IMG/VR virus record: IMGVR_UViG_3300032323_001868
Span: 25,762 to 89,761 of that record
Length of the DNA stretch: 64,000 bases
Reading direction: 5' to 3' (one strand)
DNA from: a virus
Shown: piece after piece, positions 25,234 through 54,484 of the stretch
Layout of the letters: every line of letters starts with the position of its first letter
Position numbering within the stretch: position 1 is the stretch's first letter
Position numbers and translations under genes: made by a program
The notes under the pieces: generated by a model
Told to the model about the DNA's origin: nothing
Database searches by the model: none
The model's input: the letters and a program-made list of their open reading frames with translations, nothing else

Positions 25234-26289
25234 ATGTTTAGAATGTCTTTATATGCACATCCACATGTAAGAAGATCAGAGTCTTACTTTGGTTATGCAT
25301 ATGCATATAATGAAATTAACAAACACCTAAGAAGATATCAGCATAACGGAGAAACCATTAATGTTGACATTAATTCTCCAAAGTCAAAAACACAATTATA
25401 TTTTGGGTCTCCTGATGGATTTTTTTATGACCACCAATATAAAATACAAATGACTCAATGGGAATCAACACTTGTTCCCCCACATTGGGTTGATCATGCA
25501 AAAAGATATGATGAATGGTGGACGGCCAATCAATTTGGAGCAGATGCTTTTATAAATGCTGGGGCACCTGCAGAAAAAATACATGTATTTGAACATGGAG
25601 TTGATTCATCTATTTGGACTCCAAAAAAACGAGGAACAAAAGATACAATAAGGTTTTTGCACATAGACTCAGGATCTCCAAGAAAGCGTGGAAGTTTGGC
25701 GGTAGAGGCTTTTAAAAAGGCATTTGGAGATAATCCTGATTATGAGATAACTCTTAAGTACAGTCATCATGGCGCTTCAGAACAAGATTGGTTCAACGAA
25801 AAAGTCTTGGCAAATTATGGAGAGTGGCAAGATATAAATGTTCGTCACATTAAAGAAAATTTAACTCTTGAGCATTTGATTAGTTTATTTCATTTTCACG
25901 ATGTATTAATTTATCCATCAGAAGGCGAAGGGTTTGGACTAATTCCACTACAGGCTCTTGCCACTGGAATGCCAGTAATATCAACATCTGATTGGTGCTC
26001 TTATGACAAATATTTTCAGGGGAATATAATTGAGTCCCACAGAGGAATATCAGATGTAGTAGAAACATATACAAGACACGGAGAGGTCATACTTCCACAC
26101 CTAGACTCTATGGTTGACCTAATGAAAAAAGCGGCAGAGAATATTGAAACACAATCAAATTTGTTTTATGGCCAAATATCAGAGGTAGTTAAAGACTATG
26201 ACTGGCAGTATAGAACAAATATGGCTATAGATTCTTTGATTGATAGAATCGGAATAGACATGTTTAAGAATTCTGGGTATTTTCAATGA
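25234..26289 (+). CDS. GT-B (GT4-like) glycosyltransferase
   Basis: HGVD, RK, YPSEGEGFGLIPLQALATGMPVI. Confidence 0.9.
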   Translation: MFRMSLYAHPHVRRSESYFGYAYAYNEINKHLRRYQHNGETINVDINSPKSKTQLYFGSPDGFFYDHQYKIQMTQWESTLVPPHWVDHAKRYDEWWTANQFGADAFINAGAPAEKIHVFEHGVDSSIWTPKKRGTKDTIRFLHIDSGSPRKRGSLAVEAFKKAFGDNPDYEITLKYSHHGASEQDWFNEKVLANYGEWQDINVRHIKENLTLEHLISLFHFHDVLIYPSEGEGFGLIPLQALATGMPVISTSDWCSYDKYFQGNIIESHRGISDVVETYTRHGEVILPHLDSMVDLMKKAAENIETQSNLFYGQISEVVKDYDWQYRTNMAIDSLIDRIGIDMFKNSGYFQ

Positions 26290-46885: not shown

Positions 46886-49800
46886 ATGGCTGACGTAAAT
46901 GCTAATATTGGCGTACATATTGATACGTCTGCAGCACTTGCGGAACTTAAAAGTTTACAGCGTCAACTAGCCAACTTCCATGCATCCATTGCTAAGGGCA
47001 GTGCTGCTAGTGCTTTAGCACAAAAGAATTTACAGACAAATCTTTTAAATGCTATAAATAGTACTGGTCAGTTCACTGCCCAGATGGGTCTTGTTAGAAC
47101 ATCTACTGAATCATTTACGCATGCCCTTGAAAAGAACAAACTCGGTATGCGAGACTACTTCCGCTATGCGGGAGGTGCTACAAAAACATTTGGTAGACTA
47201 TTTAGACAAGAGTTTGACACCATTCAGAAAGTTGCTGAAGAGCGTGTAAAGAAAATGCAGACCCAGTACATCAAGATGGGTCGTGATGCAAACGGTGCAA
47301 TGAAGGCTATGGCGATCACGCCAACCACATTGGACATGAAGAACTTAGGCACACAAACTGCAATCGCAGCACAGAAGCAAGCACTCTTTAATCAGTTGGT
47401 TAGACAGGGCTCTACAAACCTTCTAAACTTTGGTAAGAATACACAGTGGGCGGGTCGTCAGTTGATGGTTGGTTTTACTGTTCCTCTTGCTTACCTTGGA
47501 ACAGTTGCTTCCAAAACCTTTATGGATATGGAAAAGCAAGCAATTAGATTTAGACGTGTTTATGGAGACATGTTTACAACAACTGAAGATACAACACGAG
47601 CACTTAAAGAGATAGAATTATTAGCACAAAGTTTTACTAAGTATGGCGTAGCAGTAGTAGACACAATGGAAATGGCTGCAGATGCAGCAGCAATGGGTAA
47701 GACTGGTGCAGACTTAACAGCACAGGTTGCACAAGCAACAAGGTTGGCTGTTCTTGGTAGCGTAGAGCAACAGCAAGCACTTGAAACAACCATATCATTA
47801 ACCAATGCTTTTGGTATTGCAGCCGAAGATTTAACATCAAAAATTGACTTTTTAAACTCAGTAGAAAACCAAACAGTTGTATCTATTGAAGACTTAACAA
47901 TTGCAATTCCAAAGGCTGGCCCAGTTGTTCAACAACTTGGTGGAGATGTAGAAGATCTTGCATTCTTCCTTACAGCAATGAAGGAAGGTGGAATCAATGC
48001 CTCAGAAGGTGCTAACGCACTCAAGTCTGGTCTTGCCTCTTTAATTAATCCAAGCAAAAAAGCAGCAGCAATGCTTAATGATTTGGGTATTAATATTAAT
48101 GCAATTGTTGAAGGAAACATGGGAAATGTAAGAGAAACTGTTATTGATTTTTCCCATGCACTTGACACACTAGATCCACTTAATCGTGCTCGTGCAATTG
48201 AACAATTGTTTGGTAAATTCCAGTTCTCACGTTTGTCAACCCTGTTTCAAAACGTAACAAAAGATGGAACCCAGGCTGCTAGAGTGCTTGATCTTGCTGG
48301 AGCATCTGTTGAAGAACTTGCAATATTGTCAGAACGAGAATTAAAAGCGGTAGAGGATTCAGTTGGAACTAACTTTAAAGCAGCAGTAGAAGAACTTAAA
48401 CTAACACTTGCTCCAATTGGTAAAGAATTTTTAAAGGCAGTTACACCAATTGTTAAGGTTGTTGGGGATGTTCTTGAAAAGTTCAATGGCCTTAGCGATG
48501 GAACTAAGAAGTTTATAGTTATTGCAACAACAGTTGCAGGGCTTATAGGACCAACCTTATTGATGACATTTGGTTTGCTTGCTAACGGTGCAGCAAACAT
48601 TATTAAACTATTCCTTGCAATGCGTCAAGGATTTATGCGTTTGGGTGGAAACTCCAAACTTCTTGCAGACCAAACAAACTATATGACTATGGAACAGTTG
48701 GAAGCAACAACTGTAGCCTCATCACTTAATCAAGCACACGCCCGACTAACACAATCATTTACGGTGGAAGCATCTGCAGTAAGGGCCTTGCGCCAGGCAT
48801 ATATAGATGCAACAGTTGCAGCAACAGCATTTGCCAGAGCAAATCCTGGAATGATGGCTGCATCACCAAGAGGGCCAAGAGCAACAAAAAATAACCTAAG
48901 TCAAAATCCAAAGAAGTTTGCCGATGGAGCAACATATGTTCCAGGAACTGGTAACAAGGATACGGTTCCAGCAGTCCTTACTCCTGGTGAAGCAGTAATT
49001 CCAAAGAGGGTAGCGCAAGATCCAAGATTCCAACCAATCATTGATGCAATGGTTAATGGAAAATTGCAAGGGTTTATTGATGGAACAGATGATGTTCAAC
49101 CAGTAAAAAGTCCATTTGCTAACTCTAAACCGTATGAGAAAAAAGTTTATGTAGGTGGACCATCTCAAGATCAACTTAGATCAAGTATGGGCCAGGTAAC
49201 TGATCTTGTTAATAAAAAACCAAGAAAAGAAACTGATGCAGAGTTTGCAGCAAGAAGTGCAGCGCTACTTGCAAGAATGCAAGAAAAGAAAAAGTCAAAG
49301 AGAGGCTCTGGACCAACTCAAAAAACACACGTTGGTCAAGGAAAAGAAGTTTCAATTGCTGAAATATTAAAATCAGATAATCTTAGCCCAGACAATAGAT
49401 TGAAGTTGCAGGTATTTGATGAAATATTAAGAGTTAATGGTGAGTCAAGAACTACTCTTCAATACCATGATCTTATGTATGACTTTAACAAAGACTTTAA
49501 TCGTTCAATGCAAAGAGAGCCTGGAGTTGATGCAATTCAATTTTTGGATGAATGGAAAAAACTTGGCCCATCGAAATGGGCTGCATCTGGTATATCACAA
49601 TATGATGCAAGAACAATTGATGACATTATGTATGAAATCATCAAGAAAGAAACTACGGTTGATCCAGATAATCCAACAAAAAAGCCTGTAAGAACTACAG
49701 TATCTGATTCATATGTTGCAGAGATTTTTGAAAAAAGAATACCACAAGAATATCCACAAGTTGCAGAGTCTACAACATATAAAAAGATGAATGCTCTATA

Positions 49801-52800
49801 CAATAATTTAGGAGCATTTAGATTAGGTAAGGGACTTAAAGGAACAGTAGCAGAAACTGAATCAGTATTAAAGAAAGCACTTGATGCAGGTGTAATTAAA
49901 AACTTTAGAGTTAGCCCAACAAAGAAGAATGAAGTTGATAGACAAGGAAGGCTAATCACTGGATCAATTTATGTTACAGATAACGATGGAAATATTATTT
50001 CTCTTAACAGAGGTGGTGCTGGAACCCGTGTAACAACACCTATTGAACCTATTAATGCAAAATTACAAGAAATTGAAAAAGAAGCAAATAGAAGGGGTGC
50101 AAAGAGTTTTGTTGATCGTGAAAATGCACTAGAAGAAGTTGCTGCAAAAACAAAAAAGAGTCCTGTTGGAAATCAAGAACCAGAAAAATATGTTAGACAA
50201 TTAGGAAAGAGTAGCGGGTATAGTTTTACACCAGAACCAGGTATCGCTGGATTCTACGAAAAATCAGACGGAAGTAAAGTATTTGTTAAACCTGTAATGG
50301 ATTATGATGCTGCAATTGCAGAACAAAGAGGAACAATAATTGCAAGAGATGTACACGGGCTAGACTCTCCTCTTCAAACAATTAAAACAATGATCGATCC
50401 ATCAGATGCAAAGGGTCAAAGAAAACTAATCGTTCTTGAATCTCCGTATGAACCTAGGTTTGATCCTGCAAATATGCTAAATGAATTTACTGAGGATGAC
50501 TACTTCAAGCAACTTGTTGCTGCAACTTTACGTGCTGATAGTGATGTAAAGAAAGGCAACTTATCTGGAAATATATTAGCGGATGTTGGTGCTGCTGGAG
50601 TCTTTGAGACCGCTTCAGGAGATAGGGGTTATTCTGCAAATATTAGATCAATGCAAGAACAGGCTCAAATTTTACTTGGTGATAAGGGAACAAAGTTCTT
50701 CCGTGAAGCAACTGCAGATATTCCAAAGAATATGACACCAGAAGAATATCAAAGACGAGTTGTTGCAGAAATTGACAGAGTGCTGCCTAGATTACAGTCA
50801 ACTGTTGATGGTTTTGATTTAAATCCTCAAGAAAGAAAAGTCTATGAGGCAATGATTGCAAGACTCAAGGCTGGAAGAAATATTGACTGGAAGCAATTCC
50901 ATGCATTGCATTCTAAAGTACTTGTTGCTAAAGATGAATCGTTCCAAGATAAAAAGACTGGAGCAATTACAGATATTGAGGGTAAGCCAAAACCTACAGG
51001 AGTTGTTCCATCAAGTGGTAAGTTAAAAGACAACAAACTTACAAGCATCCCTAAAGGTAAGAGAGTGGTCAAAACTCCAAAGCCAAGAAGAGCAGGAAAG
51101 GTTGTTCTTCCTGGTTTAGCAGATGCACCAGAAGCATCAACAGCGCCAGGAATTAGAATTGGTGATGCAGCAAAACAATTTAGAGCAGAGCAAAATTCTT
51201 TAAGAAGACAAATAGAAAAACTAGAAAAGATAAAAGTCGTTGAACAAAAAAGAGAAATAAAACAAATGCGTAAACAGTCTGAAATAAGAGATAATATTTC
51301 AAAGACTGATCAAGCAAATATTAAACAAAAGATCAAAGACCAACAAGACCTTAATAATAAAAAAACCTTAGATGATAAGATGCAAAAACAGCAAAGCCGA
51401 ATGATGAAAATGCAAGGCGTTGGCATGGCTGCTGGTATGGCAGCATCTGGTGCATATATGACTGGTAATACCAATATAGGAAATGCACTTATGGGTCTTT
51501 CAGTTCTTGCAACAATTGGACCAATGTTGGCAAATCCAGTAATGGCTGCTGTTGTAGGCCTAACAGCAGTTGCTGGCTCTATAATACTTCTTAGAAGATC
51601 TTTTGATAAAGCACAAGACAGTACTATGAAGATGACAGAATCTTTGGGTGCTGGAAGTAAGTCTATTCAAGATCTTGCGGTATTTGCTGGTAAGGTTAGT
51701 GCCACAGAAATAATGGATAAAAGAAGGCAGGGTCAATTAAACCCATTTGCAATTCAAACTGGAAAAACTACATTTGGAGAAAGTTTTGTAAAGTCTGAAA
51801 CTGGTAAGGCTATGCTTGCTAATGTTGGCCAATCAATTAAGCAGGGTGGAAATGTTAATACACAGCAACAAGTTTTAAATCAAATGGTAACTGCAGTTAC
51901 TTCAGGTGCTCTGGGTGCAGATCAAGCAAGAAGTATAATTGCAAGTATTGGATCTGAAATTGGAGATTATGGTTTTGCACTAAGAGTTAATGCTCAACTA
52001 TCTAGTATTGTTGGTCCTAATGGAGAAAATTTAGAAAAAGATCCATTAAAGGTAAGAATGGACTTAATGGATGCTAGTAGAAAAGATTTACAAAAGCAGT
52101 CTAAAATTTTGGGAAATGTTGCTCCAGGAGCACTTACAAAGACACAGGGCAACTTTGCAATTGCAGGATCAGCAGGTGCTGGCGCACTTACGGGTGCAAC
52201 AATAGGTGCAATTGCAGGGCCAGTAGGTGCTGCTATAGGTGCTGGTATTGGTGGAATTATTGGAGCAGGTGCAGGATTTTTGGGTCAAAAGGGACAACAA
52301 GAAAAACTTGGTAAGGCGTCTGGCGCAACAGTTGCTATGCAAAAGATGGCTATAGAGCAAAGTCAGCAGATGCAAGATTCTTTAAGACTAGAATATGAAC
52401 AAAGAATTGCTAATGCAAAAGCAGCAGGTGATACTGCAAAAGCCATTAGACTTCAAGGTGAGTTTGAACGTGCTAATGCAAGATTAATTCATAGAAATGG
52501 TTTGCTATTAGATAATATTGCAAACACATATAAAGGCTCTTCAGGTGCTGTCAGAGGTGCTCTTGAAACTGGAGTCGAGAAGCAAATTACGGATAAGTAT
52601 AAAGGTACTGCAATGGCAGACATTGCACCACTAGCATCTCAACTTCTCGGAGATAGCAAACTATCAAAAGAACAGCAGTTTACAATAAAAATGCAACTCG
52701 CTTCTGGACAGATGGATCCAATGCAAATTGTAAATATTATGGAAAGTTTTGGAAATGATAAACAAGTTTTAACTAAGGTTATGAATATTGTAACTCAGTT

Positions 52801-54484
52801 TGGTGGAACAATGGCTAACCAGGCTATAGCAATAGCAGGTACTTTTGTTGATTCACAAGGAAAACCAGTAAAATCTGTACAAACAAAGTTTATTATGCAA
52901 TTAGAAAAGGCAAAAACTCCAGAAGAAGCACAAAAGATTTTAGATTTTTATGGCAAGGTTTCAGCAACTGGAAATGTTTTAAATACTTCTGTTATTGTAA
53001 ACCTATTGTTAAATAATCCAGGATTAGCAGCCACCTTAATGGCAACAATTGACAAGATTACTGCACTTAAGGGACCAATCACAGTGGGAGTACTTACCGA
53101 AGTATTAAATAAAAAAGAGTTAGATGTTTTAACTGAAGATTTAGAATATTTTAATGGATTAAGTGATGAAGAAAAGAAAGTATACTTACAAACTTTAGTA
53201 ACAACAATATCTACAGTATCGAAGGATGATCCAGCATTTAAGACATGGCTTACTGCAGAGGGCGAGAAGTGGGCAGATGCACCTCCAGGAACACAACTAC
53301 GAGAATATGCACAGTGGAATGCAAATAGAGTTACAGAAGCCTCAGTTCCTAACATAATGCCACCATCAAAGTCTGGCGGTGGATCAGGAGCAGGAGGTAA
53401 GCGGGATACCACATATGATGATATTCTAAACACATTAAAGCGTACACGAGATGCAACAATCAAAGCAACTGGTGGAGCAAAAGAATTATTACGTATACTT
53501 GGTGGTAAAAAAGATATAACCATATTTAATGGTATAGATCAGCAGTTGTCTAAACTTGGTGCCAACAAAGACTTTATTGATTGGGTTGGCGGTATAGATG
53601 ATGCAATTAGAAATAAACTTATTAAGATAACCAAGCAAGGCGTAGTGTCACTTACAGAACTTGGTGAAGCATCAAAGAAGGCATTTGATGAAAAGCAACT
53701 TGGGCTTTATGCTGCAGGACTTGATGATTCAATCAATACCTCAAAAGATCAAAGAAAGGCCTTTGTCAAGTTAAGCAATGCTGGACTAGATGTTAATAGT
53801 ATTCTTGACATAGTTCAAGAAGGAAGTTTGGCAAATGCTATTGCTACCTCTAAAAACTCTAAAGAACTTGTAAAATTTGTAGAACTTAAAAAACAAGAAA
53901 AGAAGCAGTTAGAACTAACATCTGCAATGACAGAGCCAAAGAAGTTCTTGGAAGAAATTAATAATGAACTTGATAGACAGTTTAATTATCAAAAGAGATT
54001 GATGGATCTTCAGAAGAGACAAACCGAAGCCAAGATTTCTGGAGATTATATTGGTGCAGCAATATTGGGACAAGAGCAATCCTTTGAAACATCACAGTTT
54101 GCAAGAGAAGGAGCAGGCACAGATTTCTCAGGTAAAGTTAATACAATGCAACAGGCATTAAAAATTCTTAGTGGATCTAAGATTAAGGATAAATCACAGC
54201 AAGCATTAATGCAATCAAGTCTAAACCAAGGAATGCTAGGATTAAGTCAGTTAGGTTCATTTAATCCAACATATGGATATACACCGCAGTTTGCAGGTAT
54301 TAGTCCAGCAAGTGCTTTTGGTGGAAGGCCAACAAGTACAACAGACTCCTCTGGTTCAGTGTATAATATTCAGATGACTGTAAACGGAAACAATGCAACA
54401 GCAGATGATATTGCAAGCCAGGTAATGAAGAAGATCAGCCTTGTTTCACAAAGAAATAACAAGAGTAATTCGGTAGGTAGATAA
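46886..54484 (+). CDS. tape measure protein with internal cargo domain(s)
   Basis: 2532 aa; helical TP901-like core (GI.ASE.ANALK), hydrophobic Gly/Ala stretches, VPGTGNKDTVPA.LTPGE.V motif. Confidence 0.93.
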   Translation: MADVNANIGVHIDTSAALAELKSLQRQLANFHASIAKGSAASALAQKNLQTNLLNAINSTGQFTAQMGLVRTSTESFTHALEKNKLGMRDYFRYAGGATKTFGRLFRQEFDTIQKVAEERVKKMQTQYIKMGRDANGAMKAMAITPTTLDMKNLGTQTAIAAQKQALFNQLVRQGSTNLLNFGKNTQWAGRQLMVGFTVPLAYLGTVASKTFMDMEKQAIRFRRVYGDMFTTTEDTTRALKEIELLAQSFTKYGVAVVDTMEMAADAAAMGKTGADLTAQVAQATRLAVLGSVEQQQALETTISLTNAFGIAAEDLTSKIDFLNSVENQTVVSIEDLTIAIPKAGPVVQQLGGDVEDLAFFLTAMKEGGINASEGANALKSGLASLINPSKKAAAMLNDLGININAIVEGNMGNVRETVIDFSHALDTLDPLNRARAIEQLFGKFQFSRLSTLFQNVTKDGTQAARVLDLAGASVEELAILSERELKAVEDSVGTNFKAAVEELKLTLAPIGKEFLKAVTPIVKVVGDVLEKFNGLSDGTKKFIVIATTVAGLIGPTLLMTFGLLANGAANIIKLFLAMRQGFMRLGGNSKLLADQTNYMTMEQLEATTVASSLNQAHARLTQSFTVEASAVRALRQAYIDATVAATAFARANPGMMAASPRGPRATKNNLSQNPKKFADGATYVPGTGNKDTVPAVLTPGEAVIPKRVAQDPRFQPIIDAMVNGKLQGFIDGTDDVQPVKSPFANSKPYEKKVYVGGPSQDQLRSSMGQVTDLVNKKPRKETDAEFAARSAALLARMQEKKKSKRGSGPTQKTHVGQGKEVSIAEILKSDNLSPDNRLKLQVFDEILRVNGESRTTLQYHDLMYDFNKDFNRSMQREPGVDAIQFLDEWKKLGPSKWAASGISQYDARTIDDIMYEIIKKETTVDPDNPTKKPVRTTVSDSYVAEIFEKRIPQEYPQVAESTTYKKMNALYNNLGAFRLGKGLKGTVAETESVLKKALDAGVIKNFRVSPTKKNEVDRQGRLITGSIYVTDNDGNIISLNRGGAGTRVTTPIEPINAKLQEIEKEANRRGAKSFVDRENALEEVAAKTKKSPVGNQEPEKYVRQLGKSSGYSFTPEPGIAGFYEKSDGSKVFVKPVMDYDAAIAEQRGTIIARDVHGLDSPLQTIKTMIDPSDAKGQRKLIVLESPYEPRFDPANMLNEFTEDDYFKQLVAATLRADSDVKKGNLSGNILADVGAAGVFETASGDRGYSANIRSMQEQAQILLGDKGTKFFREATADIPKNMTPEEYQRRVVAEIDRVLPRLQSTVDGFDLNPQERKVYEAMIARLKAGRNIDWKQFHALHSKVLVAKDESFQDKKTGAITDIEGKPKPTGVVPSSGKLKDNKLTSIPKGKRVVKTPKPRRAGKVVLPGLADAPEASTAPGIRIGDAAKQFRAEQNSLRRQIEKLEKIKVVEQKREIKQMRKQSEIRDNISKTDQANIKQKIKDQQDLNNKKTLDDKMQKQQSRMMKMQGVGMAAGMAASGAYMTGNTNIGNALMGLSVLATIGPMLANPVMAAVVGLTAVAGSIILLRRSFDKAQDSTMKMTESLGAGSKSIQDLAVFAGKVSATEIMDKRRQGQLNPFAIQTGKTTFGESFVKSETGKAMLANVGQSIKQGGNVNTQQQVLNQMVTAVTSGALGADQARSIIASIGSEIGDYGFALRVNAQLSSIVGPNGENLEKDPLKVRMDLMDASRKDLQKQSKILGNVAPGALTKTQGNFAIAGSAGAGALTGATIGAIAGPVGAAIGAGIGGIIGAGAGFLGQKGQQEKLGKASGATVAMQKMAIEQSQQMQDSLRLEYEQRIANAKAAGDTAKAIRLQGEFERANARLIHRNGLLLDNIANTYKGSSGAVRGALETGVEKQITDKYKGTAMADIAPLASQLLGDSKLSKEQQFTIKMQLASGQMDPMQIVNIMESFGNDKQVLTKVMNIVTQFGGTMANQAIAIAGTFVDSQGKPVKSVQTKFIMQLEKAKTPEEAQKILDFYGKVSATGNVLNTSVIVNLLLNNPGLAATLMATIDKITALKGPITVGVLTEVLNKKELDVLTEDLEYFNGLSDEEKKVYLQTLVTTISTVSKDDPAFKTWLTAEGEKWADAPPGTQLREYAQWNANRVTEASVPNIMPPSKSGGGSGAGGKRDTTYDDILNTLKRTRDATIKATGGAKELLRILGGKKDITIFNGIDQQLSKLGANKDFIDWVGGIDDAIRNKLIKITKQGVVSLTELGEASKKAFDEKQLGLYAAGLDDSINTSKDQRKAFVKLSNAGLDVNSILDIVQEGSLANAIATSKNSKELVKFVELKKQEKKQLELTSAMTEPKKFLEEINNELDRQFNYQKRLMDLQKRQTEAKISGDYIGAAILGQEQSFETSQFAREGAGTDFSGKVNTMQQALKILSGSKIKDKSQQALMQSSLNQGMLGLSQLGSFNPTYGYTPQFAGISPASAFGGRPTSTTDSSGSVYNIQMTVNGNNATADDIASQVMKKISLVSQRNNKSNSVGR

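Follow-up and report, generated by a model that had tools for sequence, protein, structure and literature searches.

Tape measure proteins (TMPs) exit the phage tail before the DNA does and become inserted in the membrane, and peptidoglycan-hydrolase motifs occur in those of mycobacteriophage TM4 and phage T5 (pb2). To our knowledge, the enzymes found inside TMPs are cell-wall hydrolases, with the RNA polymerase of Thermus phage P23-45 as the one exception. In the latter, gp96 joins a TMP to a virion RNA polymerase responsible for transcription of the pre-early genes, which implies that a TMP-borne enzyme using nucleoside triphosphates (NTPs) can act in the host cytoplasm (PMC10770324). TMP-related modular effectors of the Sle1 type, with a scaffold that is modular and exchangeable, have been described from actinobacterial contractile injection systems, in a paper that mentions no kinase module (PMC13277306). 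Kinase domains are included among the virion-delivered "polyvalent proteins" of phages and plasmids (Iyer et al. 2017, PMC5512222). Here, we describe a predicted protein-kinase-like (PKL) domain within the TMP of an uncultured lake phage, encoded in a window of 64,000 nucleotides (nt) that spans positions 25,762 to 89,761 of an 89.8-kb IMG/VR virus contig (IMGVR_UViG_3300032323_001868). Full-text literature searches returned no paper describing a kinase domain within a TMP.

The TMP gene (P0001) is one uninterrupted open reading frame (ORF) of 2,532 amino acids (aa) at 46886..54484 of the window, on the plus strand, as are all features given below. We favor, with a probability of roughly 55%, the reading that aa ~1100–1344 form a catalytically competent atypical kinase of a new family, carried as a swappable cargo cassette between presumably membrane-inserting segments of the TMP.

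Fold and catalytic residues of the kinase-like domain

A first-pass annotation of the window, made from the sequence alone, had read a series of short motifs between 50190 and 50920 as a kinase of the "HipA / PI3-4-kinase-type" inserted in the TMP. The motifs do lie in kinase order within the TMP ORF. Downstream of VPGTGNKDTVPA (starting at aa 685, nt 48938), GIAGFYE starts at aa 1119 (nt 50240), VFVK at aa 1132 (nt 50279), AEQ at aa 1145 (nt 50318), DSDVKKGNL at aa 1218 (nt 50537), and LADVG at aa 1231 (nt 50576). The boundaries that we derived for the domain, aa ~1100–1344 (50183..50917), agree with the proposed span.

An AlphaFold2 model of aa 1095–1360, built from a 30-sequence alignment with no templates, reached a mean predicted local distance difference test (pLDDT) score of 90.2 and a predicted template modeling (pTM) score of 0.88. 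The elements of the model follow the order seen in kinases, with three strands and a long helix, then two strands, a linker, and a helix, and finally a loop region with short strands ahead of a helical lobe. Both lobes of the PKL fold are predicted: the N-lobe, with its beta sheet and helix C, and the helical C-lobe.

Catalytic residues were placed by their order on the strands and helices of the predicted model, and their conservation was counted over 240 near-full-length homologous kinase domains. K1135 (50288..50290), in the third beta strand (model strand 37–43), occupies the position of the ATP-binding lysine, and E1146 (50321..50323), in the first long helix (model helix 46–62), that of the helix-C glutamate; each is kept in 240/240 domains. 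R1216 (234/240) ends model helix 109–122, and D1220-x4-N1225 comes immediately after, as part of a catalytic-loop-like D1218-x-D1220-x4-N1225 (50537..50560; D1218 in 234/240, D1220 in 239/240, N1225 in 240/240). Two short strands precede D1233-V-G1235 (50582..50590), a DFG-like metal-binding motif in which the Asp is present in 240/240 domains and the Gly in 237/240. The PKL catalytic set (beta3 Lys, helix-C Glu, Asp-x4-Asn, Asp-x-Gly) is therefore present in order, and the residues that had been picked out from the sequence for these roles proved to be the invariant or nearly invariant ones. G1111, G1122, P1162, and Q1209 are likewise found in 240/240 domains.

In a comparison with 229 full-length carriers, the kinase region ranked second in conservation among the parts of the TMP, with a median identity of 51%, compared with 69% for the N-terminal core and about 30% for the ruler and C-terminus. 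The domain is under strong purifying constraint.

VFVK, AEQ, and DVG are individually common short motifs, and their kinase resemblance could have arisen by chance in a non-enzymatic hydrophilic spacer of the TMP. We give this almost no credence. The model predicts a kinase fold confidently, the residues of the motifs are fixed or almost fixed across the 240 homologues, and conservation of the domain exceeds that of the ruler. Fold prediction, the structural matches described below, and conservation together refute the chance reading.

It is very improbable, in our estimate, that the domain is a pseudokinase or nucleotide-binding scaffold, serving in host-protein docking or as an ATP-sensing switch, or that it carries out another chemistry such as AMPylation, as in SelO-type folds. 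The kinase fold often hosts non-canonical chemistry, and two features here are unusual: the catalytic loop D-x-D-L-x-x-x-N and the short spacing of 8 residues between N1225 and D1233. Pseudokinases, however, typically lose at least one canonical catalytic position, and all five are kept here (D1220 in 239/240, the rest in 240/240) despite up to ~70% divergence elsewhere.

Comparison of the model with 48,161 PDB representatives by VIA-align placed kinase-fold proteins in all of the top 50 positions. The best score was that of CotH (11.8; 220 aa aligned, 4.3 Å), followed by PI4KIIalpha (10.5), MavQ (10.2), CtkA (10.1), Fam20 / Golgi casein kinase and HipA (9.2 each), ATM (8.8), and actin-fragmin kinase and HipT (8.6); RIO, Bud32, YihE, WaaP, and APH/MPH scored 6–7.5. 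The comparison structures were 5jda for CotH, 3akj/3akk/3akl for CtkA of Helicobacter pylori, and 4pu3, 3tpb, and 7ab3 for HipA/HipT. Every significant Foldseek match in the PDB was also a kinase. When the top 1,000 were re-aligned, CtkA scored 11.0, PI4KIIalpha 10.0, HipA 9.7, LepB 9.5, and Vps34 9.2, and canonical eukaryote-type kinases reached at most 6.7. The named language-model neighbors in the ESM Atlas were HipA_2, LepB_N, and PI3_PI4_kinase (0.91–0.92), which we take as a lead only. As modeled, the TMP domain is structurally nearest to the atypical CotH / CtkA / PI4KII / HipA group. The AlphaFold2 and Foldseek check suggested with the first-pass annotation thus returned a kinase-like fold, and not another one, with conserved catalytic residues.

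Since the top structural matches include protein kinases as well as lipid and small-molecule kinases, these two substrate classes cannot be told apart by fold similarity. The domain could accordingly be an active phosphotransferase on an envelope lipid or small molecule (a phospholipid, a lipid-linked precursor, or a sugar), aiding the DNA channel of the TMP locally with no reprogramming of the host. The scores of protein kinases are at least as good (CotH 11.8, CtkA 11.0, HipA 9.7), and we consider such an envelope role doubtful, also in view of the distribution of the domain among close relatives (see below).

Structural neighbors in BFVD were large phage proteins, from Mycobacterium phage Onyinye and Gordonia phages GodonK and Sixama, together with proteins of the haloarchaeal viruses HHTV-1 and HSTV-2. 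The Onyinye neighbor (1,340 aa) is annotated as "ADP-ribosyltransferase", and that of HSTV-2 as "PI3K/PI4K catalytic domain". Judging from these predicted structures, kinase cargo may be widespread beyond TMPs, within large virion-type fusion proteins.

Sequence relationships and occurrence of homologues

Searches of Pfam, NCBIfam, and PHROGs gave no match to the kinase region, nor did Pfam when run on 15 aligned members with E up to 10, and the PDB gave none when searched by sequence and by profile. There was no profile match to the HipA family (PF07804 HipA_C / PF20613 HipA_2), the PI3/PI4-kinase family (PF00454), or the CotH family (PF08757). Alignment with hhalign found nothing against E. 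coli HipA and a probability below 1% against 11 actinobacterial CotH domains, with both shallow and 240-sequence profiles; HipA_2 matches occurred in only 3/121 genomes, too few for a profile. The "HipA / PI3-4-kinase-type" label consequently stands as a description of the fold and falls as a statement of sequence-family membership. We conclude from the model and these searches that the domain constitutes a new family at the sequence level, of kinase fold, with occurrences only inside giant TMPs.

A search with aa 810–1360 in a 5.8-billion-protein collection recovered 283 giant proteins, nearly all with PF10145. The kinase-like part (aa 1095–1360) is present in 120/120 of the matches listed, at 47–70% identity, and the region preceding it in only 50/120. 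When 1.84 billion representatives were searched exhaustively with phmmer, 164 clusters (50% identity) were recovered, 156 of them with E ≤1e-10. All 164 are proteins of 2,000–4,400 aa or fragments of such proteins, with no free-standing homologue and no annotated kinase among the matches. Among 185,579 species genomes there is a single locus (L028/L029; G001:C1:65433-69197), on a contig of 85 kb that was assigned by binning to an uncultured Bifidobacterium metagenome-assembled genome (MAG), with a TMP-like ORF of 3,160 aa. This contig is probably a phage contig, near a whole genome in size, and not a prophage, and one locus in so many genomes fits lytic, uncultured phages. The family is thus a large one, but current annotation misses it, since its members come only from uncultured phages and Pfam, NCBIfam, and PHROGs do not detect them.

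An optional cassette within the TMP

A search with the N-terminal core (aa 30–660) identified at least 600 IMG/VR contigs. We used the best 80 core-sharing contigs (76–91% identity), 59 of which have a complete TMP ORF. The kinase is carried by 18/59 complete TMPs (median length 2,859 aa) and is absent from 41/59 (median 2,451 aa), as judged by tblastn and a hidden Markov model (HMM) of the 240 kinase domains. On a maximum-likelihood tree of the N-terminal core, from which the 21 loci with a TMP ORF cut by the contig end were left out, kinase presence requires at least 4 changes, against a mean of 16 when shuffled, and at least 3 are forced by well-supported branches. The cassette has therefore been repeatedly gained, lost, or swapped among close relatives. 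Since most close relatives are without it, the cassette is dispensable for the basic job of the TMP.

The limits of the cassette were disclosed by a collinear TMP, L062, which aligns over aa 1–734, 814–1049 (an accessory domain, here called domain A), and 1336–2383 (48% identity). In L062, ~20 residues stand in place of aa ~1050–1344, a clean deletion or indel. The cassette, as delimited by this gap, consists of a helical hairpin and the kinase domain (aa ~1050–1344, 50033..50917). Because the module is an optional cassette, present in 18/59 close relatives and missing from 41/59, the description of the domain as "inserted" was right in a stronger sense than first meant. The variation of the insert among related TMPs that the first-pass annotation had proposed to look for takes three forms: presence or absence, the L062 deletion, and alternative modules.

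The alternative modules occupy the same place in the kinase-less close relatives L044, L118, and L120 and measure ~245 aa or more. In L044, a different ~245-aa module (aa ~798–1043) replaces domain A and the kinase. A Pfam scan of the alternative middle modules from four relatives gave nothing above cut-offs. Directly after the kinase, VLVAKDESFQDKKTG (aa 1345–1360, window 50918–50965) is kept in kinase-less TMPs and forms the constant downstream junction of the cassette.

The distribution among close relatives bears on the envelope-directed phosphotransferase considered above. The 41/59 close relatives without the cassette eject their DNA all the same, so the cassette is not needed for channel formation. 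Such an enzyme would, in addition, find no ATP outside the cytoplasm.

Of 208 full-length homologues, 205 have a hydrophobic segment upstream of the kinase and 200 have one downstream, placing the cassette between hydrophobic segments in at least 200/208. The gap from the upstream segment varies from 173 to 1,579 aa. In the present TMP, a Kyte-Doolittle scan located these segments at aa 542–577 (48509..48616) and aa 1531–1573 (51476..51604), and a third, Gly/Ala-rich one at aa 1757–1800 (52154..52285).

The constant position of the domain is relevant to a further alternative, in which the kinase acts during assembly. It would phosphorylate the TMP, tail chaperones, or other virion proteins, in the manner of CotH, and would have no role after ejection. 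The top structural match, CotH, is indeed a kinase of structural coat proteins. However, an assembly-phase enzyme could be served by a free-standing gene, and no stand-alone homologue was found among the 1.84 billion representatives. This alternative also leaves unexplained why the kinase is constantly embedded in an ejected protein, between hydrophobic segments, and kinase-less relatives have the same N-terminal core and neighboring architecture. We regard it as improbable.

The remainder of the TMP is that of a TP901-family protein (PF10145, TIGR01760) in its core domain, gene position, length, and hydrophobic segments. Its N-terminal ~660 aa match PF10145 (E 8e-26), TIGR01760 (E 4e-32), and phrog_10030 (E 7e-103), and a dozen further TMP PHROGs also match the N-terminus. 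This conserved core (aa 33–660, 46982..48865) shows a median identity of 69% to 208 relatives and is the only part in common with the TMPs of cultured Streptomyces and Gordonia phages. The closest cultured TMPs are those of Streptomyces phages, for example, LilMartin (2,105 aa), with an alignment limited to aa 31–575. The actinobacterial affinity of the core sequence suggests an actinobacterial host. The ORF is preceded by tail-chaperone-like ORFs and followed by minor tail proteins. The siphophage-type structural block upstream comprises a portal, a capsid protein, an adaptor-like protein, an Ig-domain tail protein, and two chaperone-like ORFs.

A second globular region had been suspected at about 49300–50050, and aa 815–1049 (49328..50032), our domain A, do fold on their own in the model, with a pLDDT mostly >90. 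The model of domain A had no fold match in BFVD. Its identity, 32%, is lower than that of the kinase, and it occurs in about a quarter of kinase-bearing TMPs and also without the kinase. Being rarer, less conserved, and found on its own, domain A is an independent module. Its invariant polar residues are H815, N872, K897, D912, D941, and R1042.

The VPGTGNKDTVPA motif belongs to a conserved "punctuation" unit of ~55 aa, located with a motif HMM at aa 676–730 (48911..49075). The unit is present in 1–5 copies per TMP in 267/289 relatives, with a copy at most 150 aa from the C-terminus in 240/289; in 35/248 carriers, it occurs on either side of the kinase, no more than 100 aa away. Only one copy, without a C-terminal counterpart, is present in the TMP described here. 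The unit could mark a boundary between modules where recombination or processing occurs. Downstream of the cassette, a sequence reading of aa 1345–1508 (50918..51409) shows a Lys/Pro-rich low-complexity linker and a charged coiled-coil-like stretch; the first part of the linker (VLVAKDESFQD...) is also present in kinase-less TMPs.

Other Pfam-annotated cargo was seen in kinase-bearing TMPs, namely, a cytidylyltransferase-like domain (PF01467) in P0006 and LysM (PF01476) in P0010, P0019, and P0039. A search for shorter homologues returned mostly contig-end fragments. Four proteins with the N-terminal core measure only 700–1,100 aa (P0266, P0289, P0293, and P0346) on contigs of 70–130 kb and may represent split or interrupted TMP genes.

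Proposed role and comparison with known systems

If the domain is an active kinase, it would likely work as follows. The TMP would pass out of the tail tube before the DNA and insert its hydrophobic segments into the host membrane, leaving the cassette exposed on the cytoplasmic side. We place the cassette there because a kinase needs ATP, which is available only in the cytoplasm. A few kinase copies would then act on a host target close to the site of entry, phosphorylating it in the first moments of infection. This target would most likely be a protein, and the likely purpose take-over of the host or counter-defense. A catalytic enzyme makes sense as cargo since there are few copies per virion. 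The virion may thus deliver a preformed kinase to the host together with the phage DNA.

Several points weigh against this role. No link by sequence or profile to characterized kinase families emerged from Pfam, NCBIfam, PHROGs, the PDB, or hhalign, and the kinase assignment therefore rests on predicted structure. The spacing between the catalytic Asn and the metal-binding Asp is shorter than the 13 residues of canonical kinases. The charges flanking the hydrophobic segments, inspected by eye, do not decide the membrane topology, and a folded domain of 30 kDa is hard to fit inside the tail tube. Finally, a tblastn search of 50,697 deposited phage genomes did not find the kinase domain, leaving it with no cultured carrier.

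A broader and more tentative proposal is that the stretch between two hydrophobic segments of giant TMPs is a general swappable "cargo bay" of abundant uncultured lake phages. The kinase would be the commonest cargo, acting before phage gene expression, with domain A and the remaining unassigned modules as additional effectors of new fold. Cytoplasm-acting enzymes would in this case be delivered at DNA entry, and a component of host defense, translation, or the membrane would be phosphorylated within seconds of infection.

If the kinase reading is correct, the tail ruler protein would carry a new class of enzyme, and the phage could modify proteins or lipids of its host ahead of all phage transcription. 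The presence or absence of the cassette among close relatives provides natural controls for its function.

Comparison with CotH, the atypical Ser/Thr kinase of the Bacillus spore coat, disclosed no sequence or profile similarity to the TMP domain. CotH is a free-standing bacterial protein acting on coat proteins, whereas the TMP domain is embedded in an ejected phage protein. The domain also differs from HipA in having no equivalent of the HipA N-terminal subdomain. Its catalytic loop, R-x-D-x-D-L-x-x-x-N, contains no His, unlike the DxHxxN and GDRHxxN loops of HipA and the PI3/PI4 kinases.

With the polyvalent proteins and the actinophage MuF/portal/ART fusions, the TMP shares a kinase-fold domain set in a large multidomain protein thought to enter the host with the DNA. 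In those systems, however, the kinase domains sit in capsid- or MuF-associated proteins, and tblastn found no sequence similarity between them and the TMP domain. The polyvalent kinase family described in 2017 has lost its C-terminal subdomain, whereas the TMP domain is predicted to keep a helical C-lobe.

Like the TMP hydrolases and Sle1, the locus has a predicted enzymatic or effector module built into an ejected TMP-like scaffold. Modular cargo of this sort is a principle that Sle1 and the polyvalent proteins have in common. The known muralytic enzymes of TMPs work outside the cytoplasm, on the cell wall, and do not depend on ATP, in contrast to a kinase. P23-45 gp96 resembles the present protein as a giant TMP bearing an NTP-using enzyme, and action in the cytoplasm is suggested here by analogy with it. 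The enzyme of gp96 is an N-terminal RNA polymerase essential for pre-early transcription, whereas the predicted kinase is an internal and optional cassette. The TMP described here would thus be of a known kind, an enzyme cargo on an ejected virion protein, with a new enzyme class and a new sequence family of a known fold.

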